A stretch of 39,167 nucleotides of DNA from Phycisphaerales bacterium (GTDB taxonomy: Bacteria > Planctomycetota > Phycisphaerae > Sedimentisphaerales > Anaerobacaceae). Location: positions 1 to 39,167 of the forward strand of contig DQCG01000609.1 of the NCBI GenBank assembly GCA_003533825.1. The letters run 5' to 3'. Each line of letters begins with the position of its first letter. The first letter of the stretch is position 1. Below, in pieces: positions 8,891 through 39,167 of this stretch. The position numbers were made by a program, and so were the translations under genes. The notes under the pieces were generated by a model. That model was not told the origin of the DNA. It did not search any database and saw only the letters and a program-made list of their open reading frames with translations.

Positions 8891-8951
8891 AAGGGCGCCT
8901 GTGCACAGCAAGACCGGGTGTTGTCTTGAAGTCAAGAGAATAGGGGATGAT

Positions 8952-10613: not shown

Positions 10614-10667
10614 CTTTGTGGAGAATAGCTTTCGACGTTTTGCGGTCAATTCGAAGAATGTGGTGAC

Positions 10668-11924: not shown

Positions 11925-11973
11925 TGCAGGCGGCAGCATATTAAATGCTGTTTGGTGTAAAAGGTAAGTTGGT

Positions 11974-13403: not shown

Positions 13404-13874
13404 ATGGTTAAGAATAAAGGTAAATTGCGAATCTGTCTGGCTGCTTCAGCGGGGGGGCATATATCCCAATTGCTCAAGCTGGCTGAAAGTTGGGACGACT
13501 ACGAGACTTTCTGTGTCACTACGACACAAGTCGTGCGGGATAAGCTGAGCAGATTCGGCGAAGTCTATGTTGTCGGAGAGTGTAACCGCGAGCACCCGAT
13601 ACGGGTCGTCGCCGTATTGATGCGGTGTATCAGGATTGTGTTAAGGCAGAGGCCCGACGTCGTGATAAGCACAGGTGCGGCGGCCGGGTGCATGTTGTGT
13701 TTTCTGGGAAAAATGCTTGGCGCGAAAGTCGTGTGGATTGACAGTATTACCAACGTGGAGCGGCTCTCACTCTCGGGAAGAATGGTTCGTTACATTGCGG
13801 ATTTATTCCTGGTGCAATGGCCTGAGCTGGCCGGTAGGTATAAAAGGGTCGAATTTGTCGGGACAGTAGTATGA
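13404..13874 (+). CDS. Alg14-like glycosyltransferase subunit (PssD/Cps14F-like membrane-association subunit)
   Basis: RICLAASAGGHISQLLKL, PDVVISTGAAAG and VVWIDSITNVERLSLSGR are typical of Alg14/PssD. The stop overlaps the next start (ATGA at 13871-13874). Confidence 0.8.
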   Translation: MVKNKGKLRICLAASAGGHISQLLKLAESWDDYETFCVTTTQVVRDKLSRFGEVYVVGECNREHPIRVVAVLMRCIRIVLRQRPDVVISTGAAAGCMLCFLGKMLGAKVVWIDSITNVERLSLSGRMVRYIADLFLVQWPELAGRYKRVEFVGTVV

Positions 13875-14362
13875 TTTTTCTGATCGTTGGGACACAGTTT
13901 CCGTTCGACCGTTTGGTCAAAGCCGTTGACGAAGTCGCCGGTAAAAACGGATTTGACGAACGGATTGTCGCTCAGATCGGCGACAGCTCTTATCGTCCGG
14001 AGAACTTTGACGCCGTCCCATCGGTGGAGAAAGCTCTTTTCGATCGGTATTTTGCCGAGGCGGACAGCATTATCAGTCACGCGGGAATGGGAACAATAAC
14101 GATGGCGCTGGATCATAGAAAGCCCTTACTTGTTATGCCGAGATTGAAAAAGTATGGCGAAGTTGTAAATGATCACCAGCTCGCTCTTGCAGGGAAGTTC
14201 GAGCAGCTCGGCTATTTACTGGTAGCCTGCCAAGCGGAGGATGTGCCGGGGAAAATGGAGCAGTTGAAGTCCTTTGTTCCGCAGAAGCGCCAGCCGTCCG
14301 CAGAAGTTGTTGCGGCGCGCATCTCAACATTTTTGAATGAATTGGCTCAGTTGAAAAACTGA
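13871..14362 (+). CDS. Alg13-like glycosyltransferase catalytic subunit (Glyco_tran_28_C; PssE/Cps14G-like)
   Basis: MIFLIVGTQFPFDRLVKAVD, IISHAGMGTI and VVNDHQLALAGK. Translationally coupled to the Alg14-like gene. Confidence 0.85.
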   Translation: MIFLIVGTQFPFDRLVKAVDEVAGKNGFDERIVAQIGDSSYRPENFDAVPSVEKALFDRYFAEADSIISHAGMGTITMALDHRKPLLVMPRLKKYGEVVNDHQLALAGKFEQLGYLLVACQAEDVPGKMEQLKSFVPQKRQPSAEVVAARISTFLNELAQLKN

Positions 14363-24367: not shown

Positions 24368-26335
24368 ATGCAGAATATCAAAGCTGTTATACTTGTAGGC
24401 AATAGCGACTTCGGACGGTGTCCGCTGGCGTCACGCTTGCCGCCGGCTTTGTGGCCGGTGGCGGGAAAACCTGCGCTGGAACGCCTGCTGAACCATTTGG
24501 CCGATCAGGGTATAAAGCAGGCGGTTGTTTGTGGCGGAGGTGCCGCTTTTTTACTGGCTAAAACGATTCTCACCGATGATCGTTTGGATATGGATTTTTT
24601 CGATGAATCGTTGCCGGTGGGTACCGCAGGTTGTATTCGCGGAGGTGTGAGCGAGCAAACCGATGAATTACTCCTGGTATTTCCCGCCGGTATATTATGT
24701 CCGCCGGAAGTAGATGTGCTGATGAAGGTGCACCGTGATGGCCGATCTGATGTAACTGTGATGTTGAATCCCACTTACGGAGACGATATATATTCGGAGC
24801 AGGCGTCCGGAATATATGTCTGCAATCCGTGCATCCTGGAACATATACCAAAGGCCGGTTATTTTGATATTAAGGAAGGCTTAATTCCTGAAATGCTCCG
24901 GGTCGGAAGGACAGTTCATGCAGCAAGGTTACCGAATCACGCCGGGAATTTTCGGAATCGGCAAGAATACTTATTTGCAATTTCCGATTACCTTGAAAAT
25001 GTCCCAAAACTGAATGCGGATTTGAAGCTCCTGAAAAGTTCCGATTCCGAAAATGTGTGGTTGGCGGCGAATGCCAGGGTGGACCTTCAGGCAAGAGTTG
25101 ATGGACCGGCTATTATTATGGACGGCGCAACAGTATCAAGCGGAGCAGTTGTTCTCGGGCCGGCTATCCTTGGAAAAAACGCTGCTATCGGCAAAGACAG
25201 CGTTGTAACGAATGGTGTGCTGTGGGACGGCGTACAAGTGGGCTCAAATTGCCTGATCAGGAAATGCGTTATCGACTTTCATGCATCTGTTCAAGATAAT
25301 ACTGTTGTGGAGGAGAAGTCCATACCATTTAAACCGGAGGGGATGTTGAGGCGTGCGGTCAGTCTTGCCTCTGAGGTTGCAAAAAATAACGCGGACAAAT
25401 TGCAGAGGGTATTACAACCACTTGACAAAATTTACGAAATATTGCCGGATTGGACCTGGTTGAGCAGAAAGAGTATTATTGCACTCCTCGGATCCGGCCT
25501 TGTTTTAATAGTTTTTCTCTGGTCTTACTGGTCCGGCCTTGGGGAGCTTTGGAGTTTGTTGCTGAGAAGTGATGAATATTCAGCCGGCCTGTTTGTTCCT
25601 TTTCTAAGTGTTTATATCTTGTGGTCAAGGCGACATGATATTGCTCAGTGCCCCGTTAAGCCTTCTATCTGGGGGCTGTTTGCCTTCATGGCGGCCCAGG
25701 CGATAAGACTTTTAGGGTTGTTCCTTATGTACAGTTCAGCGGAAAGATTATCTATCATCCTGAGCATTGCCGCATTGGTATTGCTGTTGTTTGGCTGGCA
25801 GCTTTTCCGGAAGGTATCTACGATATTATTGTTCCTGTGTTTAATGCTGCCTTTGCCTAACATGTTGCAGTACTTCATCGGGTTGCGCCTGCAAAACTGG
25901 GCCACTTCATCGGCGGTGTTCTGCCTTGAAATAATCGGATACGAGGTTATCCAGGAAGGCAATATAATTAATATTGGCAATGCGAGCGTTGCTGTAGTTG
26001 AAGCTTGTAACGGCTTAAGGATGATTACAGCTTTTTTTGTGATTACCGGGCTGGTTGTCCTGCTGGTCAAGCGGAAATGGTGGGAAAAGCTTATAATTCT
26101 GGCATCCAGCCTGCCCATCGCCTTACTTTGTAACACCATACGATTGGCAATTACAGCCGTGTTTTTCACAGTTCTTGAGGGTGAGTATTGGGAAAAAATA
26201 TTCCACGACTTTGGCGGGTATGCAATGATGCCATTGGCTCTTGCTGTGGTGGTTGGTGAGCTTTGGCTTTTGGCAAAACTGACTGTGCTTCCGGAAACGG
26301 AAGAAGCAATAATAATTACACGACAGAGGGGATGA
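24368..26335 (+). CDS. fusion protein: N-terminal nucleotidyltransferase-like + LbH module, C-terminal exosortase (EpsH/Xrt family)
   Basis: Exosortase part (about nt 25450-26335): SDEYSAGLFVPFLSVYILWSRR, VEACNGLRM (Cys547, nt 26006-26008), CNTIRLA (Arg592, nt 26141-26143) and FHDFGGY (His613, nt 26204-26206). N-terminal part: KAVILVG...WPVAGKPALERLLNHL and the LbH turns VVLGPAILGKNAAIGKDSVVTNGVLWDGVQVGSNCLIRKCVI. Confidence 0.85.
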   Translation: MQNIKAVILVGNSDFGRCPLASRLPPALWPVAGKPALERLLNHLADQGIKQAVVCGGGAAFLLAKTILTDDRLDMDFFDESLPVGTAGCIRGGVSEQTDELLLVFPAGILCPPEVDVLMKVHRDGRSDVTVMLNPTYGDDIYSEQASGIYVCNPCILEHIPKAGYFDIKEGLIPEMLRVGRTVHAARLPNHAGNFRNRQEYLFAISDYLENVPKLNADLKLLKSSDSENVWLAANARVDLQARVDGPAIIMDGATVSSGAVVLGPAILGKNAAIGKDSVVTNGVLWDGVQVGSNCLIRKCVIDFHASVQDNTVVEEKSIPFKPEGMLRRAVSLASEVAKNNADKLQRVLQPLDKIYEILPDWTWLSRKSIIALLGSGLVLIVFLWSYWSGLGELWSLLLRSDEYSAGLFVPFLSVYILWSRRHDIAQCPVKPSIWGLFAFMAAQAIRLLGLFLMYSSAERLSIILSIAALVLLLFGWQLFRKVSTILLFLCLMLPLPNMLQYFIGLRLQNWATSSAVFCLEIIGYEVIQEGNIINIGNASVAVVEACNGLRMITAFFVITGLVVLLVKRKWWEKLIILASSLPIALLCNTIRLAITAVFFTVLEGEYWEKIFHDFGGYAMMPLALAVVVGELWLLAKLTVLPETEEAIIITRQRG

Positions 26336-26430: not shown

Positions 26431-28908
26431 ATGAACGAATTAGAGAAATATCACAGTCAGGCGACTGGACAAGAAATTGTTAATTTACAAATTCCGCCTG
26501 AACAGGAAAGTGAAGCCACGTCGGATCTGGTAGCCGGCATACTCCGCCGCTGGTACATTGTTTTACTGATATTAATATTAATCTGCGGTAGTGGCCTGCC
26601 TGCCGTATGGTTTATGGTAAAACCTATATACGATGTAACAGGCGCGGTAAGAGTTGCCCCCATATTAGCTGACATCCTGAGCGGCGAACAAGACAGAGGG
26701 GAAATATCCAACTATGAAAGCTTTATGAATACTCAGGCGGAAAAGATCACCAGCAACTCGGTTGTGCAAAGAGTGGCGGACGATTTGGTAGGCAAGAATC
26801 TGTTTTTCTTTGAAGCTGAACCGAACGATCTGGTCTCAAATTGGAAGCGGAAGATTCTCGGTACAAAAAAGATAGATCCGGCAATGAAATTGAAACTGGC
26901 TATAGTTGAAGATGAGACCATTACAGTAGCGGCGGACCGACGGAGTGAACTGATAAACATTACTATGCGAAGTGCAAACGAGGAAGAAGCAAAGCAGATT
27001 GTAGATGCCTTTATTAAGGCATATATGGAGATTGAAGTTGTCAGTGCGGACGAAGATGAGAACCGGCAGCTTGCTATCCTTGAGAACAGGCGTGACTATC
27101 TTTACGAGAAAATTGAAAACGACCGCCAGACCATCTACCAGTTGGGACAGGAATATGGAACTGTAGCTCTGGAAGGGCGGCAGGATATGATGCTGCAGCG
27201 TGTTGCAAGTCTGCTTGATACGCTTACAAGCGTCGAGGCCAAAAGAATAGAGCTCGAAGCGCAGGTCCTGTTGCTTGAGCGCACAAGAGAGCAGCCAATC
27301 TCGCCCGAAGAGCTGCTCAAGATGAGACAGGATTATATCAATCAGGATCCCGCGGTCGTGGCTTTCACGGGAAATATAACACAGTTGGAACAAGATCTCA
27401 TAATTGCCCAGCAGACATTAACCGCTGAAAATCCGGAACTTATCAGGAAAAATGAGCTGTTGAAAACGTTGAAGAAACATTTAGAGGATCGAAAGCAGGA
27501 GGCCAGTAATGCTTTTGATAATTTAGTGGCTAAGGAATCGGCGGTGGCCGGCAACAAGCAGCTTGTGGCTAAACGCAGTGAGCTTGAACAAACTCGAGAG
27601 TATGAAAAACGTCTTCAAGAGACACTATCGCAGCAAGATACTCAAACCATTGGAATTGGTAGAAAACAACTGACGATTCAGGAATTGCAGGAAGGGTTGG
27701 AATCTACAAAAGAAGCTTACCAAATAGTGCTAAAGCGAATACAGGATCTCGAGTTGCAGCGGAAGCGTCCGACAAGGATTTCCGTGCATTATAATGCCGA
27801 TATTGCCTCTATTAACGATAAGCGGGTGAAATATTCAGTAGCCCTGGTCTTTGGTTCGCTTGTTTGCGGTATGGGATTGGCGTATCTTCGGGATAAAGCC
27901 GACCAGAGTCTGAGGACACCCGATGACGTGGCAAAGCGTATAGGTATTCGAATAATCGGCACGACTACAAGTTTGAATACTGTTAAGCCGGCTCTTCTTC
28001 CGGAACAGATAGTCGGAGATTACCAGACTATTCGAGCCAACTTAAAGCTGCTTGGCGGCAGAGGGATACCAAAGAAACTGGTTGTTACCAGTCCGGGCAT
28101 GAAAGAAGGCAAAACCACTTTTTCCGTTAATCTGGCAACAAGCCTGTCCGAGTCGGGGAAAAAGGTTTTACTTATAGACGGCGATTTGAGAAAACCTGAT
28201 GTTGCGCGGTTGTTGAATCTTCCCAAGGGTTCGAGGGGATTGCAAGACGTTCTCTGTGGAGTAAAATTTGAACAGGCAGTCTTTTCTGTAGCTTCAACGG
28301 GCCTGGATGTACTTGCCGCCGATTTCCAGGATTCGGCGGATGCCTACGAGATGTTAGCTTTGCCTTCGACGGCTAAACGGATAAATGCAATCAGCAGAAA
28401 GTACGATCACGTGATCATCGACACTCCTCCCGCGCTGGTTTTTCCCGATGCTCTTATGTGGGCTAAGATTGGAAATGCGGTCATTTTGGTCAGCTATGCC
28501 GGCCATACTACCATGCCAGACCTCAAAGAAGCGAAAGAACGACTTTTACAAATAAATGTTAAGGTGCTGGGCACCGTGCTGAGTAGTGTTCAGGCAGAGC
28601 ATAGTTATTACCGCCACGGCCATAGTTATTATGCACAAAGCGCTCAAACAAGAGAAAGTGCCAGGGTATCCAGGAGAAAACTGATGTTCTCCATGGAAGA
28701 GGGCGCAGATAATACCTACGATTCGAAAATCCCGGAGTCTGATAAGCCGGGTGAAGGTTTTTCGTATTCACAAAGTGTCGAATCAAGAAAAAGCGTTATG
28801 CGAAAACGAACCAGGAAAAAGCCGCCGGTCTCGAATGAGGACATCGCGGATGCAGATAATACCGATACATCCGAGACCGACAGCGAAAATCGGCCGACTG
28901 AGGCCTGA
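26431..28908 (+). CDS. polysaccharide co-polymerase (PCP-2a, Wzz/GumC-like) fused to a BY-type tyrosine autokinase
   Basis: Strong RBS AAGGAG. TM1 is WYIVLLILILICGSGLPAVWFMV, followed by a long coiled-coil periplasmic region, then TM2 YSVALVFGSLVCGMGLAYL. Walker A SPGMKEGKTT, Walker A' LLIDGDLRKP, Walker B HVIIDTPP. Tyrosine cluster SYYRHGHSYY (aa 725-734). Confidence 0.9.
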   Translation: MNELEKYHSQATGQEIVNLQIPPEQESEATSDLVAGILRRWYIVLLILILICGSGLPAVWFMVKPIYDVTGAVRVAPILADILSGEQDRGEISNYESFMNTQAEKITSNSVVQRVADDLVGKNLFFFEAEPNDLVSNWKRKILGTKKIDPAMKLKLAIVEDETITVAADRRSELINITMRSANEEEAKQIVDAFIKAYMEIEVVSADEDENRQLAILENRRDYLYEKIENDRQTIYQLGQEYGTVALEGRQDMMLQRVASLLDTLTSVEAKRIELEAQVLLLERTREQPISPEELLKMRQDYINQDPAVVAFTGNITQLEQDLIIAQQTLTAENPELIRKNELLKTLKKHLEDRKQEASNAFDNLVAKESAVAGNKQLVAKRSELEQTREYEKRLQETLSQQDTQTIGIGRKQLTIQELQEGLESTKEAYQIVLKRIQDLELQRKRPTRISVHYNADIASINDKRVKYSVALVFGSLVCGMGLAYLRDKADQSLRTPDDVAKRIGIRIIGTTTSLNTVKPALLPEQIVGDYQTIRANLKLLGGRGIPKKLVVTSPGMKEGKTTFSVNLATSLSESGKKVLLIDGDLRKPDVARLLNLPKGSRGLQDVLCGVKFEQAVFSVASTGLDVLAADFQDSADAYEMLALPSTAKRINAISRKYDHVIIDTPPALVFPDALMWAKIGNAVILVSYAGHTTMPDLKEAKERLLQINVKVLGTVLSSVQAEHSYYRHGHSYYAQSAQTRESARVSRRKLMFSMEEGADNTYDSKIPESDKPGEGFSYSQSVESRKSVMRKRTRKKPPVSNEDIADADNTDTSETDSENRPTEA

Positions 28909-29013: not shown

Positions 29014-30732
29014 ATGAATATGATTGTTATACACAGGAACTCTGCAGATAAAAGCGGAGAGAGTTTGCTTCGGTTTGCTCTGGCCGACGAGCCTGTCGCC
29101 GGAGTTATTCTCGATGGATTGTGCAGGTGCTCAGATAAGGACATTAGGGGGGATTCCATTTTGCGATTCCCTGCGAAATTGAATCTCGGCAAGGCTGTTT
29201 GTGCTATCCCGAAGGAATGGGCGGTTGAATCTTGCGAATTGAGCCATGAAAATGAATCGGTGCGACAGACTTCATTTGATGACGGGCCAAATGTAATCCG
29301 CTACAGGGGAAAAGTGCATGTCCCAGTTGAGTTTCTTCGCAGGGCCGGACTGAATGTCGGCTCGGACTCATGGTTCGTTGTGTCCAATGGACGATTTGCT
29401 GCACAAATCAACGTCGAGCTGCTCTATAAGGTACTGGCCGGCGTCCGGGCGGACGTGGTGGCGGTTAATGCGGAACCCGGGTTGCTGGGAGAACGCGAAA
29501 AAGTGCGATTGACAACCCAGAGCAAGGTAGCGGGTTTCCGCCGGGCTTACTCGGATTCAGCCGAGTTCACATTTGTTTCTACTCAATGGCCTCATCATCT
29601 TTTTATTAAAACAAACGTACTCGATCGGATTTTGGTCGATGATGCTTTGCCTCAATCTTTTTCCGCTCTTATAGAAAAGTGCCGGTCAAAAGCATTAACG
29701 CTGCGGGCAGTTAATGTAGGCGGGACTGTGCTGGATTTAGAAACGGAAAATGGTTTACTGTACTTTTGCGAATCGAGGCTTTCGGAAATCCGGAACTCCA
29801 AATACGAACTTCGAGAATCAAGTACAATATCCGAAAATTCGAGATTTATCGGGAAGGTGCTTTTAGGAAAGAATATTCACATCGATCCTAAAGTCATTGT
29901 TGTTGGCCCGACTATTATTGCTGACAATGCCAGGATTGAGCGTGGTGCCGTTATAAATTCATCAATCATCGGGCCGGAAGTTTGTGTGCCGAAGAATCAA
30001 ATTGTCCAAAGCCGGATTATCAAGGGGCCGCAATACGACTGGAAGCGCCTGGTTCGACCCAAAAGCAGTAGAAGTATGTCACTGCGTTCCGATGGGCCGT
30101 TTCGCCTTTGGTCGAAATTTTCTTATGCGAGATTCTTAAAGCGAATTACCGATTGTATTGCCGCGGTAATGGTATTAATTCTGTTTGCCCCCGTGATGCT
30201 GTTCGTTGCCCTGGTAATCAAATTAACTTCGCCGGGTCCTGTATTTTATAAGGATAGACGTCAGGGACTGCACGGAAAGATGTTCAATTGTTTGAAATTC
30301 AGAACGATGGTTACCGGTGCTGATAAGATACAGGAGAAACTGCGAATCGTCAGCCAGGTGGATGGCCCGCAGTTCAAGATGACCGATGACCCTCGAATCA
30401 ATACTGTAGGCAGGTTTCTTCGAGAAACGTATATCGATGAAATACCTCAGTTCTTTAATGTTCTGCACGGCCAGATGAGTATAGTCGGTCCGAGGCCTTC
30501 ACCGGAATCGGAGAATACGCTGTGTCCGTTCTGGCGTGACGCCCGGCTGTCGGTTCGCCCGGGTATTACGGGGCTCTGGCAGGTTTACAGAACACGCCAG
30601 CCGATGAGAGACTTTCAGGAATGGATACAATACGACATCGAGTATGTCAGGAATCTGTCACTGAAAATGGATTTATTCATATGTTGGAAAACAGCAAAGA
30701 AACTTGTTGGAAATTTCATCAACCAATTCTGA
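29014..30732 (+). CDS. priming polyprenyl-phosphate phosphoglycosyltransferase (Bac_transf/EpsB/WbaP-type) with a ~340-aa N-terminal nucleotidyltransferase-like/LbH module
   Basis: PGT core (about nt 30120-30732): FLKRITDCIAAVMVLILFAPVMLFVALVI, LKFRTM and DEIPQFFNVLHGQMSIVGPRP. N-terminal LbH turns IVVGPTIIADNARIERGAVINSSIIGPEVCVPKNQIVQSRII. Confidence 0.9.
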   Translation: MNMIVIHRNSADKSGESLLRFALADEPVAGVILDGLCRCSDKDIRGDSILRFPAKLNLGKAVCAIPKEWAVESCELSHENESVRQTSFDDGPNVIRYRGKVHVPVEFLRRAGLNVGSDSWFVVSNGRFAAQINVELLYKVLAGVRADVVAVNAEPGLLGEREKVRLTTQSKVAGFRRAYSDSAEFTFVSTQWPHHLFIKTNVLDRILVDDALPQSFSALIEKCRSKALTLRAVNVGGTVLDLETENGLLYFCESRLSEIRNSKYELRESSTISENSRFIGKVLLGKNIHIDPKVIVVGPTIIADNARIERGAVINSSIIGPEVCVPKNQIVQSRIIKGPQYDWKRLVRPKSSRSMSLRSDGPFRLWSKFSYARFLKRITDCIAAVMVLILFAPVMLFVALVIKLTSPGPVFYKDRRQGLHGKMFNCLKFRTMVTGADKIQEKLRIVSQVDGPQFKMTDDPRINTVGRFLRETYIDEIPQFFNVLHGQMSIVGPRPSPESENTLCPFWRDARLSVRPGITGLWQVYRTRQPMRDFQEWIQYDIEYVRNLSLKMDLFICWKTAKKLVGNFINQF

Positions 30733-30752: not shown

Positions 30753-33700
30753 ATGCCGGGTAGATACTTTAACTGGAAACTGGCAATTGTTTTGGTTATC
30801 AGCCTTGTTGTTTTAGGGGTAAGCGCCTTCGGACTGCGAAAGTGGCGCAGAACCAATAGAGTAGAGCAGGATTTTATCCTTGGTAATAAAGCATATAATG
30901 AGCACAGGTGGGAAGAGGCGGCAGAATATCTGGGTAGTTATATTGCCTTGGAACGAGATGATGTGCCCATACTGCTCAAATACGCGGACGCGCAGCTTAA
31001 AATCAGGCCTGCCAAGCGCAACAGAGTTTTACAAGCTATAGGGGCATATCGGAACGTCTTAAGGTTAGAAAAAGATAATTCCGAAGCTGCTATGCAGCTT
31101 ACTGAAATCTACCTGGGCCTCGGCAGCCCCGGCGAGGCGGAGCTTACTGCCAGAAGACAACTTGAGGCTGTTCGGAATCCCGCGCTTCGGAGGATGTTGG
31201 CTCTTGCGCTGGCCGGACAGCGGAAGTTCAAAGAAGCGGCGGCGGAATTGAAAGCAGTTGTACAGGAAAATCCTGAGCAGATATTAGCTTACGAGACATT
31301 AGGTCAGCTTATAGAGCAGCGTCCGGAAGATTTTCAAGATTTACCGTCCTTTTGGTTCGATCAAGCCGTGGAGAAAAATCCGTCTTCCGCCCTGGCATAT
31401 ATAATCCACGCGGGTTTCTACAGGAGAAGTGAAGATCCATCCAGTGCTTTGGCTGATTTGGAACTGGCCGAAAAGCAGGATTTATCTGATTCGGCCGTCC
31501 GGTTGCGCCTTGCAAAAGAACTGATCAATTTAAATGCTCTTGACAAGGCGGAGGTGCACCTCGCCGCTGTGCAGGAAACCTCGCCGGCGGATCAGGATCT
31601 CTGGACAACGTGGGCTACTCTTGCATTGAAATCACAGTCGCAGGAAAAAATGTTGAAAATAGCCGAGAACGGATTGAAAGAGCTTTCTTCTCAGCCGTGG
31701 GATTTTATGCCCTTAGCCACAGAGCTGTTTATCCGCTGCGGCGAGTTTGAAGACGCTAACGATTGTCTTTCGAAAATGTACGAAAAGGATGTTTCAGCGA
31801 TGTCGGTTACATTTTTGAGAGGCCTTGTAGCCGCCGAGCAGGGGAATCTGTTTGATGCCGTAAAATATTGGCAGCAGTCTATGGAATCAGGCAACAAATC
31901 CATACATGTGCGTTTGGCGCTGGCTTCGGCTCTGTCTCGCCTGGGTAACACGCAATCGGCCGTGCAGCAACTGCGTACACTCATTTCTGAAAGCCCCGCC
32001 TCCTTCGAGGGTTATCTGGCCCTGGCTAAACTCCTGTCTCAGACTGGAAACTGGGTCGAGGTCGCCGAGCTTGCTGCAAGAGCTATGGAACTATCGCCGG
32101 AAAACCAGGAATCCGTTTTACTGCATGTACAAGCTCAGATGCAACTGTTATCGGCAAGCTCAGGTAAACAAGGGACGGTAAATGCACAGACGTTGAGTGA
32201 CGTGCAGCGGCAATTGTCTGTTTTGGAGAAAACTCACGAGTCCGTCGGTGAAGTTAAATCGTTGCAGTTACATCTCGCATTACGACAGGGAAAATATGCC
32301 GAGGCTGAGTCTCTTCTGGCTCAACTTAAGGATTCCGGCCTGCCACAAGCAAGGATTGCCATAACCGAAGCTGAGCTGCTTGTCGCTCAGGACAAGATTG
32401 ATGAAGCAATACTGATATTAAATGAAGCCGGGGAAAAGTTTCCCGATGACGCTGATGTGGTAAGATACCTTGCGCTTTCGTTGGACCGGAAAGGAAATCA
32501 AAAAGAATGCGAAGCGCTCATTATAGATTCATTGGATCGTATTGATGCACCTATTGCCAGGCGTGAATTAGGTTTGCTGCTTGCCCAATTCTATGTTCGA
32601 TGGAGACAAAATGACAGTGTATATCCGATGCTTAAAACACTTTCAGGGAAGTTGCCCAACGATATTCCTATAAAGCGTCGGCTTTTATTGTGTGAGCAGG
32701 TTATCGAAGATCCCGAACAAGCACAGCAACTTGTCAATGACATAAAATCCATCGAAGGCGACAACGGCTGGCAATGGCGATATGAACAGGCGACAGTCTG
32801 GTTCGCCATGGATGATTTCAAAAATCGTTATCCCCAGATAGTGTCACTTCTGCAGGAAAATGCGCAGATTAATCCCAATGACCAGTTAAGCCGCGTGCTT
32901 CTGGCGAGAACCTATGAGCGAGCCGGTGAGATGCGATTGGCGCTTTCGATATACCGTGAGACCTTAAGGCGGTCACCTGATGATCTTCGTGTAATCATTC
33001 CCGCTGTTGCCGCACTCTACAATGCGAGGCAATATGATGAAGCCGAGCAGGTTTTGAACCGTGCATCGATACAAAGACTGTTCCATCCGGAACTTAAGAG
33101 ATTGCAATTTCAGAGCTATCTAAGACGTGGCCAGTTGGATTCGGCCTCGGATATTCTCCATAGCCTTCTCAATAACGATCCTGATAATCAGGCTGCCTGC
33201 CTGTCTCTTGCACTGCTCAAGATACAGCAGGGCGAGTTTGATGAGGCCTCTGAGTTGCTGACCGGTCTAAAAGCACAGAATCCTGAATCGCTGCCGGTGA
33301 CCGCCGCACAAATCCAGATCAATATTCGTCAAAACAAAAACGAAGAGGCGATGCGTATTTCTAATGAAATAGTGAAAAAACTGAACAATGCATCCGCCTA
33401 TATCCTCCGTGCTCGAACATATGCTACGCTGGGGCGGATGGAAGATGCCGTCAAAGACCTCGATCATGCTGTTTCCACCGAACCTGAGAACGCTGAGGTG
33501 TGGATTGCCAGAAGCGACTTCTATCGTTCTATAAACCAGGGCGAAAAAGCAACGGCTGATATTCAGAAAGCGTTAGATCTGGCCCCTGATAACATTCAAT
33601 TACAAAAACGTGCCATTCCGCTGTTTTTAGTGTCCGGAGAACCTAATATAGTTCATGCGGGAAAGGTGCTCCTTGAACAAGCTCTGGAATCAAATGCAGA

Positions 33701-34931
33701 AGATATTGAATTACGGCTGCTCAGTGCGCGATCGGCACTTATCGAAGGGACGGCTCCGGCAATCGAAAAAGCCAAGCAGATTCTTCAAAGGGTAACTAAA
33801 GACCGGCCTGAAATGAGTGGGGCATGGGTGCTGTTGGGTCAGATTGCCATAAAGGAGGGTCAGCTTGGGAAGGCCATGGATGCTGCTTTGGGAGGTCTCG
33901 CCTATGAACCCAGCGATAAAAATTTGTTACTGTTGAAAGCTCGCGTGGAGGCGGTGCGGTCACCGGTCCTGGCTATTCCAACTCTGAAATTATTACATGA
34001 GATGGATCCGAACGATCTTAGTATCGCGATATTAATGGCCGAGACGTATATTAAAGCGGGCGATCCGGAAAGAGCTGTAAATCTGTTGAGAGAGCAATTG
34101 ACTGCTTGTGATGCCTCGACGCGTAGAAAATGCGTAGTCGCTCTGGCTGTTGCCTTATACAAAAGCGGCGACAAAGAACAGGCACAAAAAGAATTTGATT
34201 CTCTGCTTGAGTCTGAGCCGGACGATCCGGGTCCATTATTAGCGCATGTGCAATTACTCAAAGACGATGAAGCATGGAGCGTGCTGAGCCGGATGGTCAT
34301 TGACTGGTATGGTAAGCACCCCCAGGACAGTCATACGCCTGTAAACATTGCCAAGGGTTTGATGGTGATTGAGGACAATAAGGCCAGGGTAACAGCCGAG
34401 GAAATACTACGGTTGATACTGAAAGGTGACCCTGATTGTAGTGAAGCTATGGGCATTCTTGCTATCCTGCTGCAAATTAAGGGCCGTCCTGAAGAATCAG
34501 CACCGCTCTACCGCCGACTTCTTGAGCTTGAGTCTGACAATGTAATCGCCATCAATAATCTTGCCTGGATAATGTCCGAAGTGCAAGGTGAACATCAGCA
34601 AGCTCTTGAGCTTGCCCAGAAAGGGATGGAAATGGCGCCAAATTATTATGATCTCATCGATACTCGTGGTGTTATATATTACCGGCTGGGTCAGTACGAT
34701 AAAGCTGTCGCTGATTTCATGGAATGTATTAAGCTTTACCCCGGTATTACGCCGGCAAGCATTGGCACACGTTTTTATTTAGCAAGAGTATTTGCCGATC
34801 TGGGAGAAAAGGACAAAGCAATTAAATATTTGAATGAGGCTTTGGAATTGGAGGGCCAAATCGGCGGTTTATCAACGGCAGACTTGGCCGAAGCAAAGAG
34901 TCTGCTAAAACAGTTACAGGAGGGTAGTTAG
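30753..34931 (+). CDS. very large membrane-anchored TPR-repeat protein (PEP-CTERM-system TPR protein PrsT-like)
   Basis: N-terminal anchor WKLAIVLVISLVVLGVSAFGL. TPR-like helical hairpins run throughout, e.g. GNKAYNEHRWEEAAEYLGSYIALERDD, AYILRARTYATLGRMEDAVKDLDHAVSTEPEN and GVIYYRLGQYDKAVADFMECIKLYP. 1392 aa. Confidence 0.85.
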   Translation: MPGRYFNWKLAIVLVISLVVLGVSAFGLRKWRRTNRVEQDFILGNKAYNEHRWEEAAEYLGSYIALERDDVPILLKYADAQLKIRPAKRNRVLQAIGAYRNVLRLEKDNSEAAMQLTEIYLGLGSPGEAELTARRQLEAVRNPALRRMLALALAGQRKFKEAAAELKAVVQENPEQILAYETLGQLIEQRPEDFQDLPSFWFDQAVEKNPSSALAYIIHAGFYRRSEDPSSALADLELAEKQDLSDSAVRLRLAKELINLNALDKAEVHLAAVQETSPADQDLWTTWATLALKSQSQEKMLKIAENGLKELSSQPWDFMPLATELFIRCGEFEDANDCLSKMYEKDVSAMSVTFLRGLVAAEQGNLFDAVKYWQQSMESGNKSIHVRLALASALSRLGNTQSAVQQLRTLISESPASFEGYLALAKLLSQTGNWVEVAELAARAMELSPENQESVLLHVQAQMQLLSASSGKQGTVNAQTLSDVQRQLSVLEKTHESVGEVKSLQLHLALRQGKYAEAESLLAQLKDSGLPQARIAITEAELLVAQDKIDEAILILNEAGEKFPDDADVVRYLALSLDRKGNQKECEALIIDSLDRIDAPIARRELGLLLAQFYVRWRQNDSVYPMLKTLSGKLPNDIPIKRRLLLCEQVIEDPEQAQQLVNDIKSIEGDNGWQWRYEQATVWFAMDDFKNRYPQIVSLLQENAQINPNDQLSRVLLARTYERAGEMRLALSIYRETLRRSPDDLRVIIPAVAALYNARQYDEAEQVLNRASIQRLFHPELKRLQFQSYLRRGQLDSASDILHSLLNNDPDNQAACLSLALLKIQQGEFDEASELLTGLKAQNPESLPVTAAQIQINIRQNKNEEAMRISNEIVKKLNNASAYILRARTYATLGRMEDAVKDLDHAVSTEPENAEVWIARSDFYRSINQGEKATADIQKALDLAPDNIQLQKRAIPLFLVSGEPNIVHAGKVLLEQALESNAEDIELRLLSARSALIEGTAPAIEKAKQILQRVTKDRPEMSGAWVLLGQIAIKEGQLGKAMDAALGGLAYEPSDKNLLLLKARVEAVRSPVLAIPTLKLLHEMDPNDLSIAILMAETYIKAGDPERAVNLLREQLTACDASTRRKCVVALAVALYKSGDKEQAQKEFDSLLESEPDDPGPLLAHVQLLKDDEAWSVLSRMVIDWYGKHPQDSHTPVNIAKGLMVIEDNKARVTAEEILRLILKGDPDCSEAMGILAILLQIKGRPEESAPLYRRLLELESDNVIAINNLAWIMSEVQGEHQQALELAQKGMEMAPNYYDLIDTRGVIYYRLGQYDKAVADFMECIKLYPGITPASIGTRFYLARVFADLGEKDKAIKYLNEALELEGQIGGLSTADLAEAKSLLKQLQEGS

Positions 34932-34933
34932 CT

Positions 34934-35257
34934 ATGCTTCAATTGCAAAATTCACAATCTGAGAACATAGTAAGTGGTGATTACGGGTGCAAACAGCCCG
35001 ATGTCATTCTGCTTAACCAAAAACAGTGGTCGTATGTGCAAAACATTTATAATTTAACGCCTCGAGAACGTCAAATAGCGGAATTAGTTTGTAAGGGTTT
35101 CAGAAATGGTAATATAGCTAAATTCCTGCACATAAAACCCGGTACAGTAAAGACTCACACAAGGAATATTTATCGAAAAGTCCACGTTAAAAGCAAAATT
35201 GCGATGCTCCTGAGATTTGTGAATGATTCGAGGGATCTTACAACTCCCTATGTATGA
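34934..35257 (+). CDS. small LuxR/GerE-type HTH transcriptional regulator with no receiver or ligand domain (EpsA-like role)
   Basis: LTPRERQIAELVCKGFRNGNIAKFLHIKPGTVKTHTRNIYRKVHVKSKIAML is a complete GerE HTH. The ATG lies 2 nt after the TPR gene's TAG stop (34929-34931). Confidence 0.85.
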   Translation: MLQLQNSQSENIVSGDYGCKQPDVILLNQKQWSYVQNIYNLTPRERQIAELVCKGFRNGNIAKFLHIKPGTVKTHTRNIYRKVHVKSKIAMLLRFVNDSRDLTTPYV

Positions 35258-35865
35258 GAGTATATATTGCTCTTTTTACTTACAACTGAACTTTTGCAAA
35301 ACTCTTGTTACAAGGCAAAGATCGCTGAGATAATTCCTACCTATAACACCCATATATACATCCCACCATATTAGTATTAATACAAATCATAACTGACTCA
35401 TACGAAAAAACAGCTTTATTAAAGCTGACAATCCCCTTTTCAATACTAAGAAAGCACAAAATGCAGATCTAAAACATAATATAAGGATTCTGTGTCTGCA
35501 TCATTTCAAAAAACTGCAAGTACTACAAATCTTCGTTAAATCAATTAATAATCATTTCCTGAACAAATATTTACTTATCTTAAAATAGTTTTCTATTTTT
35601 CCTATATTATAGAAGTTAAACTAAAGTTATTGCGCTTATTTGTCCGATAAGTACAACGAAAATATAATACGTCCGAGAATATATCCATAAAATGCAATAT
35701 TTTCATTTATTTCTTTTCATTTTTGTTCTATAATGAAGATATTGAACTTAGAGAATATACACATAGCAGATAAGGAGGGTAAGACCATCTCGAATATATT
35801 CTGAGAGGGTCCTCGGTAGGTTATGTGGTAAGATTAAAAGCGCCCTGTAAGGAGACAGAGGAGAA
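35258..35865. promoter_or_regulatory. ~600 bp AT-rich non-coding region; presumed promoter, operator and 5'UTR for the downstream secreted-protein genes
   Basis: No plus-strand ORF of 60 aa or more. G+C is about 22-30% in the 60-nt lines I counted, against roughly 45-50% in flanking genes. TATAAT at 35729-35734. Imperfect hairpin/palindrome at 35783-35811 (GACCATCTC-GAATATATTC-T-GAGAGGGTC). Strong RBS GAGGAG before ATG 35866. Confidence 0.5.
35411..35427. repeat. perfect 17-bp palindrome CAGCTTTATTAAAGCTG (candidate operator or weak terminator hairpin)
   Basis: CAGCTTTA-T-TAAAGCTG reads identically on both strands. It lies 154 nt after the LuxR stop and is followed by ACAATCCCCTTTT. Confidence 0.6.
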
Positions 35866-36768
35866 ATGGTTCGTGGCGAAAAAACCAAGGGAATGGTAGT
35901 TATGCTGTTGTTTTTTGGTACGGCGATCGTAAATGCTGCACCAACGATTAACGATAGCGATGGCGATATCTTCCTCTGCGCCAGGCCTTCAGGTTTATAC
36001 ATATATCCTCACTGCAGGCAAGATATAGACCACGTTACCGGACTATTCAATTCACACTTAGATTCCATCTCTAAGGAATTTCACAGGCCACCTGTTAAAA
36101 ATGGCAAGTTGCAGAATACGTATATGGGCGTAAAATCATTGCCCCCAGCGCCAAAAACACTGCTGATGGTCCTGGTTGGATTCCTGTGTGTATCACTGGT
36201 AAAGGATCGCAGAGTTTGGCTTGCGGCATTGGCAGGCCTGCTATGGGCCGGCCAGGCCGGAGTCTCTATTTTGCCGCAGTTGGCTGCAAATATAGCCGGC
36301 AGAGGAAGAAGTGAAAAACAATCATCTGATCATCAGGTTGCTCACCTAACCGGGCAAAAACATCCATATCGTCTGCGAAGTGATATTGAAGGTACATGCT
36401 ATATCGGCCTGCTGCGTCATTTAGAAGGAATTCCTAAATCCGGGAAATCATTTATACCGAACACAATAGTAAGGCATAAATTTCAACAGGGAACTGAGAG
36501 AATTTCAATATGGTCTTCCTTTCGAACATGTTCCATATCTAAGTCTTTGCAAAGACTTGCTAATCATAAGTTTTTTTCTTTACCTAAGAACAACCTTCAA
36601 AAAGAGAATCGTTATTGTGGAGAAGAATCCCATTCCGCAATAGCGGCACTTTCTTCCTGCCTATTCCAGGTAACAGAGTGCCTGGCTCCAGGTGCCAGGC
36701 AACATGTCCTTTATTCATCATCATTTAATATTGCCAGCCTGGCCCGAGGTCCGCCGAATTTAAAATAA
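35866..36768 (+). CDS. hypothetical secreted/membrane protein with an internal PEP-CTERM-like segment
   Basis: RBS GAGGAG. Signal-peptide-like MVVMLLFFGTAIVNA-AP. Internal SLPPAPKTLLMVLVGFLCVSLVKDRR at aa 91-116, then a second hydrophobic segment and a ~170-aa basic, Ser/Cys/His-rich tail. No family recognised. Confidence 0.5.
   Translation: MVRGEKTKGMVVMLLFFGTAIVNAAPTINDSDGDIFLCARPSGLYIYPHCRQDIDHVTGLFNSHLDSISKEFHRPPVKNGKLQNTYMGVKSLPPAPKTLLMVLVGFLCVSLVKDRRVWLAALAGLLWAGQAGVSILPQLAANIAGRGRSEKQSSDHQVAHLTGQKHPYRLRSDIEGTCYIGLLRHLEGIPKSGKSFIPNTIVRHKFQQGTERISIWSSFRTCSISKSLQRLANHKFFSLPKNNLQKENRYCGEESHSAIAALSSCLFQVTECLAPGARQHVLYSSSFNIASLARGPPNLK
36136..36213 (+). other. internal PEP-CTERM-like tripartite motif (P-A-P, hydrophobic helix, basic cluster)
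   Basis: SLPPAPKTLLMVLVGFLCVSLVKDRR. Compare the genuine C-terminal signal of the next gene, VIPAPGAILLSSIGVCLVGWLRRRKTL. Confidence 0.45.
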
Positions 36769-36978: not shown

Positions 36979-37638
36979 ATGAAAGCTAAGGATGGTATGA
37001 GAATCTTGTCTAAGGTTAAGTATTTAAAGAAATATTGTGCGTCACGAATAAGCTTGTTTAGGCCTGTTGGGAGCAACCCATTTGTGCTGCCTGTTTTCAC
37101 AGTGCTTACAGCGGTTTTGCAAAAATCGGCGAAAACAGCAGTTTGTCTATCCGTGGTTATGTTGCTTTTCGGAGGATTAAGCACACCGGCAAATGCCATG
37201 CCGACTTTAGATCTGACAAACGCAGGCAATTCCGGATACACTGATCTTGCCTTTACCGGTAAACTTATGTTCCGAGTAACGATTGAAATCTATTTGGCAG
37301 ATGTGGGAAGTTTTACGAAAAATCCTCAGAAATACGGCTACATGATTTACGACTTCGATGCCGGCAATCTGGTCAAATTCAAATGGGGCAAGATGAATTG
37401 GCAGCACAATAAACCAAACGGCCCCGGAGAGTATATACCAAACGGTATATTTAACGATGGGGCACTTGCCTTTTTGTTTCCGAAGTTCGATCAATTTTAT
37501 CCAAATAAGCCCGGGATAAAGGATTTGGATGTCACAGCGGCCACGCCGCCGCCGGTAATTCCTGCTCCAGGTGCTATTCTTTTAAGCAGCATTGGCGTGT
37601 GTCTTGTAGGCTGGCTGCGCAGACGTAAAACACTATAG
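36979..37638 (+). CDS. PEP-CTERM sorting-domain protein (exosortase substrate)
   Basis: Strong RBS AAGGAAGGA. Signal peptide ...KTAVCLSVVMLLFGGLSTPANA-M (TTG 37117 is an alternative shorter start). The C-terminus TPPPVIPAPGAILLSSIGVCLVGWLRRRKTL* has the motif, TM helix and Arg-rich cluster of a PEP-CTERM signal. Confidence 0.8.
   Translation: MKAKDGMRILSKVKYLKKYCASRISLFRPVGSNPFVLPVFTVLTAVLQKSAKTAVCLSVVMLLFGGLSTPANAMPTLDLTNAGNSGYTDLAFTGKLMFRVTIEIYLADVGSFTKNPQKYGYMIYDFDAGNLVKFKWGKMNWQHNKPNGPGEYIPNGIFNDGALAFLFPKFDQFYPNKPGIKDLDVTAATPPPVIPAPGAILLSSIGVCLVGWLRRRKTL
37555..37635 (+). other. C-terminal PEP-CTERM sorting signal (PAPGA variant)
   Basis: VIPAPGAILLSSIGVCLVGWLRRRKTL are the last 27 codons before the stop. 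Confidence 0.8.
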
Positions 37639-37849: not shown

Positions 37850-38674
37850 TCAAACAATTGGTACGGCCCGCCAGTTTCCGATGCCGTCCCACCAGAAACT
37901 GATGTAGTCAAAAACAGCCCTGTTTTGGTATTTCTGTTTGCTTATAGCTATTGCCATATCGCGAAGCTCACTCATGCAGATCAGTCCCCCGGTTTGCCAT
38001 GCGCTGACACCAATACCGACCGCTTCCTGCTCCACCTGCTTCAGGTCCGTTATATCAGCCGTCAAAAGTCCGGCGAGTTTTTCAGCCTCTGGTTTCAGTA
38101 TTTCCTGCCAGTAGAGACGATCCGATTCTTCCCTGGCTAAGACCTCGTCCAGCAGGCGTTTTCTGTCTCTTTGTTTCTTTTCTCGTTCGTCTTTGGTATA
38201 GGCCAGCCGTTCAGCGCGGTGTTTTCGACTTGCGGGAAGTATCAGTTCGAGAAGGCCAATCGAAGGATCGACAACCACCCAGACAAGAAATGTTGTCCCA
38301 AGAGTTCCCATCGCAATGCCCAGAAGGAACTGGCTGATTGTATTTATGCCTATCATTCCCAGTAAGCCGGAAAGGCAGCCCAGAAATGGAGCTAAAACAT
38401 AGAACACCGCGTAATATATCGTACTGGTCAGCGGATGTTCCACCTGAACTTTTTGGCTGCTGCTGATACCTCTGAAAATTGCGAATAGATATAGACTGAC
38501 CAATATGAGAATGATTAACGCGCCTTGCCCTGAGAGGGAAAAGACGACCAACCATCGAACGCCGGCCTGTCGCAAGGCTACAACCAGGATATAGCCGACG
38601 CACAGAATGAACCAGACCGTGCTGGCAATGTGAGCAATTCTCAATCCATCTCGCCGCCCCAACACTATTATCAC
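37850..38674 (-). CDS. hypothetical integral membrane protein (~5 TM) with a charged coiled-coil-like segment and a C-terminal soluble domain
   Basis: Hydrophobic helices include IASTVWFILCVGYILVVAL, GALIILILVSLYLFAIF, IYYAVFYVLAPFLGCLSGLLGMI and LLGIAMGTLGTTFLVWVVV. They are followed by RKHRAERLAYTKDEREKKQRDRKRLLDEVLAREESDRLYWQEIL. The gene starts 43 nt downstream of the Wza-like gene on the same strand. No family recognised. Confidence 0.65.
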   Translation of the reverse strand: MIIVLGRRDGLRIAHIASTVWFILCVGYILVVALRQAGVRWLVVFSLSGQGALIILILVSLYLFAIFRGISSSQKVQVEHPLTSTIYYAVFYVLAPFLGCLSGLLGMIGINTISQFLLGIAMGTLGTTFLVWVVVDPSIGLLELILPASRKHRAERLAYTKDEREKKQRDRKRLLDEVLAREESDRLYWQEILKPEAEKLAGLLTADITDLKQVEQEAVGIGVSAWQTGGLICMSELRDMAIAISKQKYQNRAVFDYISFWWDGIGNWRAVPIV

Positions 38675-38717: not shown

Positions 38718-39167
38718 TCAATAGCCCATGCCGACGCCGCGGTAGCGCGTAGCATCTTCTGATGTTCCGCCTCCCATCAAATAGTAACCGGAAAACGCTC
38801 TCGCAATTGGCCGTATGAACTCTTCTATCTTCATTGCTGCCGCAGCTAATATGGTCGGTGGCACGTATATGATATCACCTTCCTGCAGCAGAACATCCTT
38901 AGTGGCATCGCCATGAGCAGCCGCACGGTCGAAGTTAAATTCAAAGATTTTGGGCTTAACATTCTCATTGCTTGACGGCCTTATTACCTGGATACGTTGC
39001 TCCCAGGCCAATACAGTCGGGCTTCCTGCGAGTGCTAATGCGCCTATGACTGTATCGCGTCCCGAATAGGCTTGTGCGCCGGGAGAGGCAACCTGGCCAA
39101 AAACGTAGATCCTTTTGCTCCTGATAGCAACGATACGAACGTCGATCGGGTTATCACCTTCAATTTG
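38718..39167 (-). CDS. polysaccharide export protein (Wza/EpsE-like OPX, SLBB-type domain), 5'-truncated by the window edge
   Basis: The minus-strand frame is open from the window edge: QIEGDNPIDVRIVAIRSKRIYVFGQVASPGAQAYSGRDTVIGALALAGSPTVLAWEQRIQVIRP...LLQEGDIIYVPP. The V.G.V..PG.....G.T...A...AGG pattern and the L..GD.I.VP pattern are typical of Poly_export/SLBB domains. The M at 39011 in the ORF track is only an internal TTG. Confidence 0.8.
   Translation of the reverse strand, partial: QIEGDNPIDVRIVAIRSKRIYVFGQVASPGAQAYSGRDTVIGALALAGSPTVLAWEQRIQVIRPSSNENVKPKIFEFNFDRAAAHGDATKDVLLQEGDIIYVPPTILAAAAMKIEEFIRPIARAFSGYYLMGGGTSEDATRYRGVGMGY

Follow-up and report, generated by a model that had tools for sequence, protein, structure and literature searches.

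An exosortase fused to a nucleotidyltransferase-like module

We identified a gene that joins an exosortase to an N-terminal module with the fold of a sugar-1-phosphate nucleotidyltransferase (NTase) in a 39,167-bp stretch of DNA from a Phycisphaerales bacterium (GenBank assembly GCA_003533825.1, contig DQCG01000609.1), hereafter referred to as the window. The open reading frame (ORF), located at 24368..26335 (+) with an ATG start and the stop codon included, encodes a protein of 655 residues, whose N-terminal module is under purifying selection and apparently non-catalytic. Our preferred reading, to which we assign a probability of about 0.6, is that the module is a cytoplasmic regulatory or docking pseudoenzyme that ties protein sorting to polysaccharide assembly. 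The protein can be divided into four parts, namely, a Rossmann-like NTase domain resembling GDP-mannose pyrophosphorylases (GMPPs), with degenerate catalytic residues (aa 1-215; 24368..25012, +), a short left-handed beta-helix (LbH) of the GMPPB_C/eIF2B-epsilon type (aa 228-320; 25049..25327, +), a poorly conserved and predicted helical linker that leads to the first transmembrane (TM) segment (aa 321-368; 25328..25471, +), and an exosortase core with eight hydrophobic segments (aa 369-645; 25472..26302, +). The first two parts were delimited by Pfam, PDB profile and Foldseek searches, together with the residue alignment for the NTase domain and the AlphaFold model for the LbH; the linker was delimited by sequence identity, the ratio of nonsynonymous to synonymous substitutions (dN/dS) and the AlphaFold model, and the core by Pfam, NCBIfam, hydropathy and alignment.

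The original prediction, made from the sequence of the window, held that the C-terminal half is an exosortase, and the family models bear this out. Exosortase_EpsH (PF09721) matches aa 381-635 with an E-value of 3e-53 (181 bits, cutoff 25.7), the NCBIfam model TIGR02602 (8TM_EpsH) scores 136 bits against a cutoff of 105.55, and the exo_archaeo signature (TIGR04178) likewise passes with 56 bits (cutoff 23). The hallmarks of exosortases are an invariant Cys and the Asn-x-x-Arg and His-x-x-x-Gly motifs (Haft et al. 2006, PMC1569441), and the corresponding C547, N589/R592 and H613/G617 show no variation among the 19 members that were aligned. The motifs quoted in the prediction all lie at the residues given there, namely, GNSDFGRC at 11-18 and PPAL at 25-28 in the module, SDEYSAGLFVPFLSVYILWSRR at 401-422, Cys547 in VEACNGLRM (codon 26006-26008, +), Arg592 in CNTIRL (26141-26143, +) and His613 in FHDFGG (26204-26206, +). 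With all the defining features tested being present, the gene product is, judged by its sequence, a member of the exosortase family. None of the named Xrt subtypes in NCBIfam 20.0 (XrtA, XrtB, XrtC, XrtD, XrtN, XrtT, XrtV, XrtW and CrtA-C) reached its cutoff, the best scores being those of XrtD (177, cutoff 400), XrtW (140, cutoff 425) and XrtA (138, cutoff 208), with all others lower. As every subtype model falls short of its cutoff, membership of a named subtype is ruled out, in line with the earlier suggestion that this is not an already named subfamily. By these models, the protein is assigned to an unclassified lineage that current NCBIfam subtype models do not capture, and the analysis flags this lineage in Sedimentisphaerales-type Planctomycetota.

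The eight hydrophobic segments all follow the first 368 residues, in which hydropathy analysis found neither a signal peptide nor a convincing membrane segment; a 19-residue stretch inside the Rossmann-like core (aa 101-119) is barely over the hydropathy threshold. The loops containing SRRHDIAQCPVKP, QLFRK and KRKWWEK are basic, and those containing SDEYSAG, Cys547 and His613 are acidic or neutral. Since this pattern follows the positive-inside rule and a signal peptide was not found, the N-terminus is predicted to lie inside, which would place the module in the cytoplasm and the catalytic triad of the eight-TM core on the periplasmic face. This topology agrees with that of EpsH described by Haft et al. 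(PMC1569441), and the cytoplasmic placement proposed earlier holds as a prediction of the same kind. No solved exosortase structure was found in our PDB sequence and fold searches.

The fused architecture is old and widespread in its lineage

We searched 5.8 billion protein clusters, and the 120 best matches have lengths of 628-682 aa, 66-95% identity and 96-100% coverage, where the value of 96% is due to two shorter entries and the remaining best-listed clusters are covered at 99-100%. These 120 clusters, which come from ENA, JGI, NCBI and Logan assemblies, are all fused, and where they are named at all, they are annotated only as "exosortase". When proteins are clustered at 90% identity, at least 120 clusters have the fused architecture, and at 50% identity at least 50 do. 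Scanning one genome per species, we found the full-length fusion, with 56-75% identity, in 35 genomes. Most of these bear the label Sedimentisphaerales or Pirellulales, others Phycisphaerae or Planctomycetota, and one is an Aegiribacteria bin; the organisms are represented here by metagenome-assembled genomes only. The copy in the latter bin (contig JAIVYN010000037.1, label Candidatus Aegiribacteria, outside Planctomycetota) is a full-length fused exosortase with 67% identity, and could be due to a binning error or to lateral transfer. In addition, an HMMER search of 1.84 billion representatives with aa 1-345 returned 4063 matches with an E-value of 1e-3 or lower, 129 of them at 1e-30 or lower, and among the best 150 of these 4063 matches there are 50 full-length fusions of 616-688 aa that contain the Cys motif of exosortases. 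As the module identity in these 50 divergent representatives goes down to 27%, the fusion is old and widespread in this lineage.

Because the original prediction pointed to nt ~25320-25450 as a place where an assembly error might have joined two genes, the linker deserves attention. Its mean pairwise identity is 36%, whereas the module and the exosortase reach 59% and 74%, respectively, and its sequence is variable, yet it is always in frame. The frame across the linker is uninterrupted in 34 of the 35 extracted genomic copies; the single internal stop, found by a crude frame extraction in locus L019 (copy at 10001-11956), could mean that this copy is a pseudogene, or that an error arose in sequencing or in extraction. 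That internal stop, together with the presence of separate genes in some distant relatives (see below), is what could be said for an assembly, frameshift or gene-calling artefact joining adjacent genes. However, the same open frame recurs in independent assemblies, in the 120 best-listed clusters and in the 50 divergent representatives, always with an in-frame linker, and this recurrence rules the artefact out, leaving it with a negligible probability.

The N-terminal module has a GMPP-like fold

The assignment of residues 1-320 to an NTase followed by an LbH of the GMPP/GlmU kind, as first proposed from the sequence, is supported by three kinds of searches. Firstly, Pfam models match above their cutoffs, including NTP_transferase (PF00483) at aa 5-134 (25.9 bits, cutoff 21.2) and Hexapep_GlmU at aa 249-314 (34 bits), and LbH_EIF2B matches aa 228-319 at 6e-13; the NCBIfam mannose-1-phosphate guanylyltransferase model also matches at 4.7e-26, yet stays far under its cutoff. 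Secondly, PDB profile searches retrieve a CugP-type UDP-glucose pyrophosphorylase (2.6e-18), the Leishmania GDP-mannose pyrophosphorylase (1.1e-11), eIF2B-epsilon (1.9e-10), human GMPPB (8.1e-10) and eIF2B gamma (4.2e-06), with VTC1 and GlmU also among the matches. Thirdly, Foldseek searches of PDB with an AlphaFold model find, at about 1e-14, GMPPA (7d72_B, the top match), VTC1, the CugP-like tlr0611, GMPPB, eIF2B-epsilon and GlmU. We used the full-length model at the level of the fold and not for the pocket or for domain docking; its Rossmann core and beta-helix have predicted local distance difference test (pLDDT) values of about 70-85, and it shows a beta-strand ladder in the LbH, a helix at 326-358 in the linker, and helices in the exosortase core. 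The LbH has only about five turns (aa 228-320), and its best matches are the non-catalytic LbH_EIF2B/GMPPB_C types. The assignment to an NTase plus short LbH fold of the GMPP kind is secure; the fine structure is not.

Catalytic positions are degenerate, and the module is under purifying selection

We aligned the window protein, the 50 fused representatives and 39 stand-alone relatives (see below) to GMPPB. The lysine of the P-K-P motif is a functional residue of sugar-1-phosphate NTases. In VTC1, Gly9, Thr12 and Arg13 bind pyrophosphate, Asp111, Glu195-Lys196 and Asp219 are critical for catalysis, and the guanine is read by Asp80 and Gly85 (PMC9168903). The G-loop of the window protein is G11-N-S-D-F-G-R-C18 and not G-x-G-T-R; in GMPPB numbering, G11, T12 and R13 are changed to D, F and G in 38, 44 and 43 of the 50 fused representatives, respectively. 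The P-K-P lysine (GMPPB K23) is P26 in the window protein and R, T, P, L or A across the family, the equivalent of D110 is G108 and N, S, A, T or C across the family, and that of D218 is N194 and N, S, H, T or A across the family. The E194-K195 pair of GMPPB is inverted to K-E in 49-50 of the 50 fused representatives (K169-E170 in the window protein), and the 24-residue hairpin with the EKP motif is deleted in all 50 of them and in the 39 stand-alone relatives, the corresponding site in the window protein being at about aa 134-147. Thus, the degeneration of the NTase signature that was initially noticed in the window protein (GNSDFGRC and PPAL) is a property of the whole family. On the other hand, the base-binding loop is retained in the window protein (E80...P83-V-G85-T-A-G88), with G85 and G88 in 50/50 representatives and E or D at position 80 in 42/50, and several replacement residues are nearly invariant, namely, D14 (38/50), F15 (44/50), G16 (43/50), R17 (39/50) and K169-E170 (49-50/50).

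The module is under purifying selection, with pairwise dN/dS values of 0.2-0.35 over aa 1-320 and of 0.1-0.25 over the exosortase half, the most similar genome pair excepted, against roughly 0.2-1.3 in the linker. These values rule out a decaying relic. Since the would-be catalytic positions vary freely and other positions are fixed, the pattern suggests a pseudoenzyme whose conserved role is not catalytic. The module has the fold of a sugar-1-phosphate NTase and fails every catalytic-residue test; therefore, it should not be classed as one.

The near-invariance of the replacement residues might also be taken to mean that the module is an active enzyme with a non-canonical site, either an NTase using R17, K169/E170 and N194/R196 or an LbH acyl- or acetyltransferase, which would make or modify a nucleotide-sugar, a lipid carrier or a protein at the sorting enzyme. 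The retained base-binding loop, the NTP_transferase and Hexapep_GlmU matches above their cutoffs and the purifying selection are compatible with such an activity. However, every pyrophosphate- or metal-binding position known for GMPP-type enzymes is changed, the variability of the K23, D110 and D218 equivalents within the family argues that these have no conserved catalytic role, the EKP hairpin is absent from fused and stand-alone members alike, and the LbH is of the short GMPPB_C/eIF2B type rather than the long helix of trimeric acetyltransferases. We thus regard an active enzyme as improbable.

Stand-alone relatives and a related region in the priming transferase

In some distant relatives the module and the exosortase are encoded separately. 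Locus L036 (1411-3550) has a 321-aa module-only gene, 40% identical, directly 5' of a separate exosortase gene in a different frame; the latter is 64% identical to the exosortase half of the window protein and is followed by a gene for a Wzz-type co-polymerase fused to a tyrosine autokinase (BY-kinase). Wherever a locus related to that of the window extends far enough (34/35), such a Wzz/BY-kinase gene (26431..28908, +, in the window) follows the exosortase. In loci L037 (3512-6128) and L038 (3407-6023), the gene order is module, EpsI, EpsH, Wzz-kinase and a gene matching the N-terminal region of the priming phosphoglycosyl transferase (PGT) described below. Locus L040 (93-7385) encodes a stand-alone degenerate NTase plus LbH with 27% identity, between a heparinase II/III-like polysaccharide lyase and a pair made up of a Wzz-kinase and a PGT with an LbH; no exosortase gene was seen on its 11.2-kb stretch. 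A fifth stand-alone relative (L039) lies on a 3.7-kb contig with no informative neighbours. The about 39 stand-alone relatives carry 'AG.H.WG.C' and 'PRPL' in place of the canonical loops, and in L036, L037/L038 and L040, the module always adjoins a Wzz-kinase, with an exosortase or a PGT alongside. It had been anticipated that orthologous loci with two separate genes would expose the fusion as an artefact; such loci do exist, but the conclusion does not follow, as the frame is open in 34 of the 35 fused copies. These split two-gene forms look like natural variants, which support a functional linkage rather than an artefact, and they allow the module to be studied alone.

The stand-alone relatives also bear on the possibility that the module is a ligand-free oligomerisation or stability domain, whose LbH would drive the formation of exosortase dimers or trimers and which would be a relic of an ancestral neighbouring gene. 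LbH domains do oligomerise GMPP, ADP-glucose pyrophosphorylase (AGPase) and VTC1 (PMC9168903), and of all parts of the module the LbH is modelled best and looks best conserved; the catalytic positions are free to vary. However, the Rossmann-like half is under purifying selection too, the nucleotide-base loop is kept in all members and would not be required by pure oligomerisation, and the stand-alone relatives are linked to a kinase and a PGT at a locus where no exosortase gene is visible. We consider this explanation unlikely.

The gene that follows the Wzz/BY-kinase in the window (29014..30732, +) encodes the priming PGT, a small Bac_transf enzyme with its catalytic domain at aa 372-565 and a single hydrophobic segment at about aa 384-402, preceded by about 365 soluble residues. 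Its residues at about 227-337 align to residues 180-303 of the module (hhalign probability 97-98%; BLASTP E=4e-6), and this homology spans the last NTase element and the LbH. The GMPPB_C, LbH_EIF2B and Bac_transf architecture is found in all 120 best-listed PGT clusters. One relative of the PGT bears the JGI annotation 'glycosyltransferase/NDP-sugar pyrophosphor...'. The occurrence of this related region on a protein encoded two genes downstream suggests that the module and the PGT may interact.

A candidate substrate with a PEP-CTERM-like tail

The 219-aa protein encoded at 36979..37638 (+) is a candidate substrate of the exosortase. It ends in VIPAPGAILLSSIGVCLVGWLRRRKTL, a PEP-CTERM-like tail, and partially matches an NCBIfam PEP-CTERM family. 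The pattern (V/I)PAPGA...GWLRRRRTL is found at the extreme C-terminus in 119 of the 120 best-listed matches, many of which have only those 25-40 residues in common with it (12-23% coverage, 52-93% identity) and are otherwise unrelated proteins, which is how sorting signals behave. In divergent relatives, the tail gene is syntenic with the exosortase cassette, as in loci L041-L044, where it is found at 10001-10915/10660. A scan for further sorting-tail ORFs yielded none within the 10-kb flanks of the 35 loci, which end short of the position of the tail protein. The tail may be a lineage-specific variant of the sorting signal that is paired with the fused exosortase lineage.

Proposed role of the fusion

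We propose the following scheme. The exosortase would be a polytopic cysteine transpeptidase of the inner membrane, with its Cys547/Arg592/His613 site facing the periplasm, and it would cleave PEP-CTERM-type tails, here the (V/I)PAPGA...GWLRRRRTL tail of the protein at 36979-37638. The variable helical linker would join it to a module that has lost the residues for pyrophosphorylase chemistry and might act as GMPPA does for GMPPB, or as the pyrophosphorylase-like domains of eIF2B epsilon and gamma do. In this way the sorting enzyme could be coupled to the downstream Wzz/BY-kinase and/or the priming PGT, possibly by LbH-LbH contacts, and the module might read out a nucleotide or nucleotide-sugar through its retained base-binding loop. 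The cytoplasmic location of the module, its ligand binding, its coupling to the PGT or the kinase and the identity of the substrate are all parts that we infer.

Several observations weigh against this scheme. The topology is based on simple hydropathy and charge analysis rather than on a dedicated predictor. The Foldseek TM-scores are low (0.3-0.4), and AlphaFold gave a model of the module alone, from seven sequences, that is too poor for use (mean pLDDT 45), and a full-length model, from 19 sequences, with a mean pLDDT of 53 and values below 40 in the G-loop region; due to this low confidence, the putative pocket could not be inspected. Moreover, D14, F15, R17, K169 and E170 might build a non-canonical active site instead of a binding site. 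In the PGT, residues 1-226 matched no family or structure by hhalign, PDB profile or Pfam searches, so that a pairing of the GMPPA/GMPPB type would depend on the LbH alone. As for the substrate, the tail protein scores 13.7 bits with the Pfam PEP-CTERM model (cutoff 20.7), and its pairing with the exosortase is drawn from co-location only.

In a stronger form of this proposal, which we put forward tentatively and regard as doubtful, the exosortase and PGT modules would pair by their beta-helices in the manner of GMPPA and GMPPB, forming a cytoplasmic bridge within a membrane supercomplex of the sorting enzyme, the PGT and the BY-kinase that is tuned by a nucleotide or nucleotide-sugar in the retained base pocket, and the exosortase would represent a new subtype with the IPAPGA...GWLRRRRTL signal. 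If true, such a supercomplex would be the first physical mechanism to explain how PEP-CTERM processing is coupled to exopolysaccharide (EPS) production, as has long been suspected.

The existence of exosortases was predicted in 2006, on the grounds that they co-occur perfectly with PEP-CTERM proteins and lie in polysaccharide loci. The fusion described here is suggestive as to how PEP-CTERM sorting may be connected to polysaccharide synthesis, and our analysis provides candidates for the interaction partners, the class of ligand and the substrate tail.

The surrounding polysaccharide locus

The window is a large polysaccharide locus. The genes upstream of the fusion encode glycosyltransferases, a Wzy-like protein, a deacetylase, FemAB/GNAT-type enzymes, an AsnB-like amidotransferase, acyl-CoA ligases (one of which best fits the exosortase-A-associated type), an aminotransferase, a WbuX-like amidotransferase and an acyltransferase. 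The window does not encode a catalytically intact NTase. Among these upstream genes, an Alg14-like and an Alg13-like (Glyco_tran_28_C) gene at 13404-14362 (+) overlap by four bases (13871-13874) and form a split two-subunit glycosyltransferase, a pair that lies immediately 5' of the exosortase in many of the related loci. At 8862-10613 (+), a gene that overlaps the end of the preceding family 2 glycosyltransferase (GT2) gene by 29 bases encodes a protein of 583 aa, in which nothing is recognisable except for a divergent InlB B-repeat (Flg_new_2) at the C-terminus.

Downstream of the fusion, the Wzz/BY-kinase and PGT genes are followed by the gene of a PrsT-like tetratricopeptide repeat (TPR) protein of 1392 aa (30753..34931, +; PrsT model 275 bits, cutoff 312) and that of a small GerE/LuxR-type regulator (34934..35257, +), which is syntenic in 25 loci. 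The exosortase, Wzz-kinase, LbH-containing PGT, PrsT-like and GerE genes form a conserved cassette, which about 30 of the 35 related loci have in common. After the regulator gene, the intergenic GC content dips to 0.34 (35001-36000), compared with about 0.47 elsewhere. Between the regulator and the tail protein, the ORF at 35866..36768 (+) encodes a conserved protein of 300 aa that is syntenic in relatives and has no Pfam or NCBIfam match. Beyond the tail protein, a conserved membrane protein of no recognised family is encoded at 37850..38674 (-), again syntenic in L041-L044, and the last gene, at 38730..39167 (-), encodes a Wza-like polysaccharide export protein that is cut by the end of the window; its C-terminal 146 aa, the part present here, are 86% identical to the Poly_export gene product of L043.

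Comparison with known systems

The window exosortase resembles the known exosortases of EPS loci (EpsH/XrtA, with XrtD as the best-scoring subtype) in its eight-TM core with the Cys, N-x-x-R and H-x-x-x-G motifs, in its neighbours, including a Wzz/tyrosine kinase, a priming sugar transferase, a PrsT-like TPR protein, an AsnB-like amidotransferase and an acyl-CoA ligase, and in the presence of a nearby protein whose tail consists of a Pro-rich motif, a TM segment and an Arg cluster. However, it differs from them in its predicted cytoplasmic N-terminal extension of about 368 aa and in having no EpsI domain, and its putative signal is IPAPGA...GWLRRRRTL rather than PEP or VPLPA. Known exosortase fusions have as their partner either a C-terminal region homologous to EpsI or a domain resembling CAAX prenyl proteases (Haft et al. 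2006, PMC1569441), in agreement with what the original prediction stated. Like the present protein, these multidomain fusions are Rosetta-stone pointers to functional partners, but here the partner is N-terminal, soluble and presumably cytoplasmic, with the fold of a nucleotide-sugar enzyme. We found no account of an NTase-like fusion in the literature on exosortases, neither Haft 2006 nor a 2023 myxosortase preprint mentioning one, so that the expectation of an undescribed architecture holds, even though public databases contain many such sequences, which are named "exosortase" there.

Active GMPPs and enzymes of the GlmU/RmlA type have the overall fold and the base loop (E/D...P-x-G-T-A-G) in common with the module, but the latter has other residues in place of G-x-G-T-R, the P-K-P lysine and both Asp residues, has K-E instead of the E-K pair and lacks the EKP hairpin. 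GMPPA (KJC1/2 in plants) has the same NTase plus LbH fold and was the top Foldseek match; it is non-catalytic, and is reported to bind GDP-mannose and to regulate GMPPB by LbH contacts (PMC11228364, PMC9168903). However, GMPPA is a soluble partner of an active paralogue, whereas the window module is attached to a membrane transpeptidase, its G-loop has degenerated much further and it has no EKP hairpin. The eIF2B epsilon and gamma subunits, whose domains of this type have a non-enzymatic scaffolding role, resemble the module in their degenerate G-loop, and LbH_EIF2B is the best Pfam match of its LbH, but they are parts of a eukaryotic translation factor with no membrane or polysaccharide context. 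Taken together, these comparisons suggest that the module would work most like the NTase-type pseudoenzymes, and it would add a bacterial, membrane-tethered case to the small set formed by GMPPA and eIF2B epsilon/gamma.

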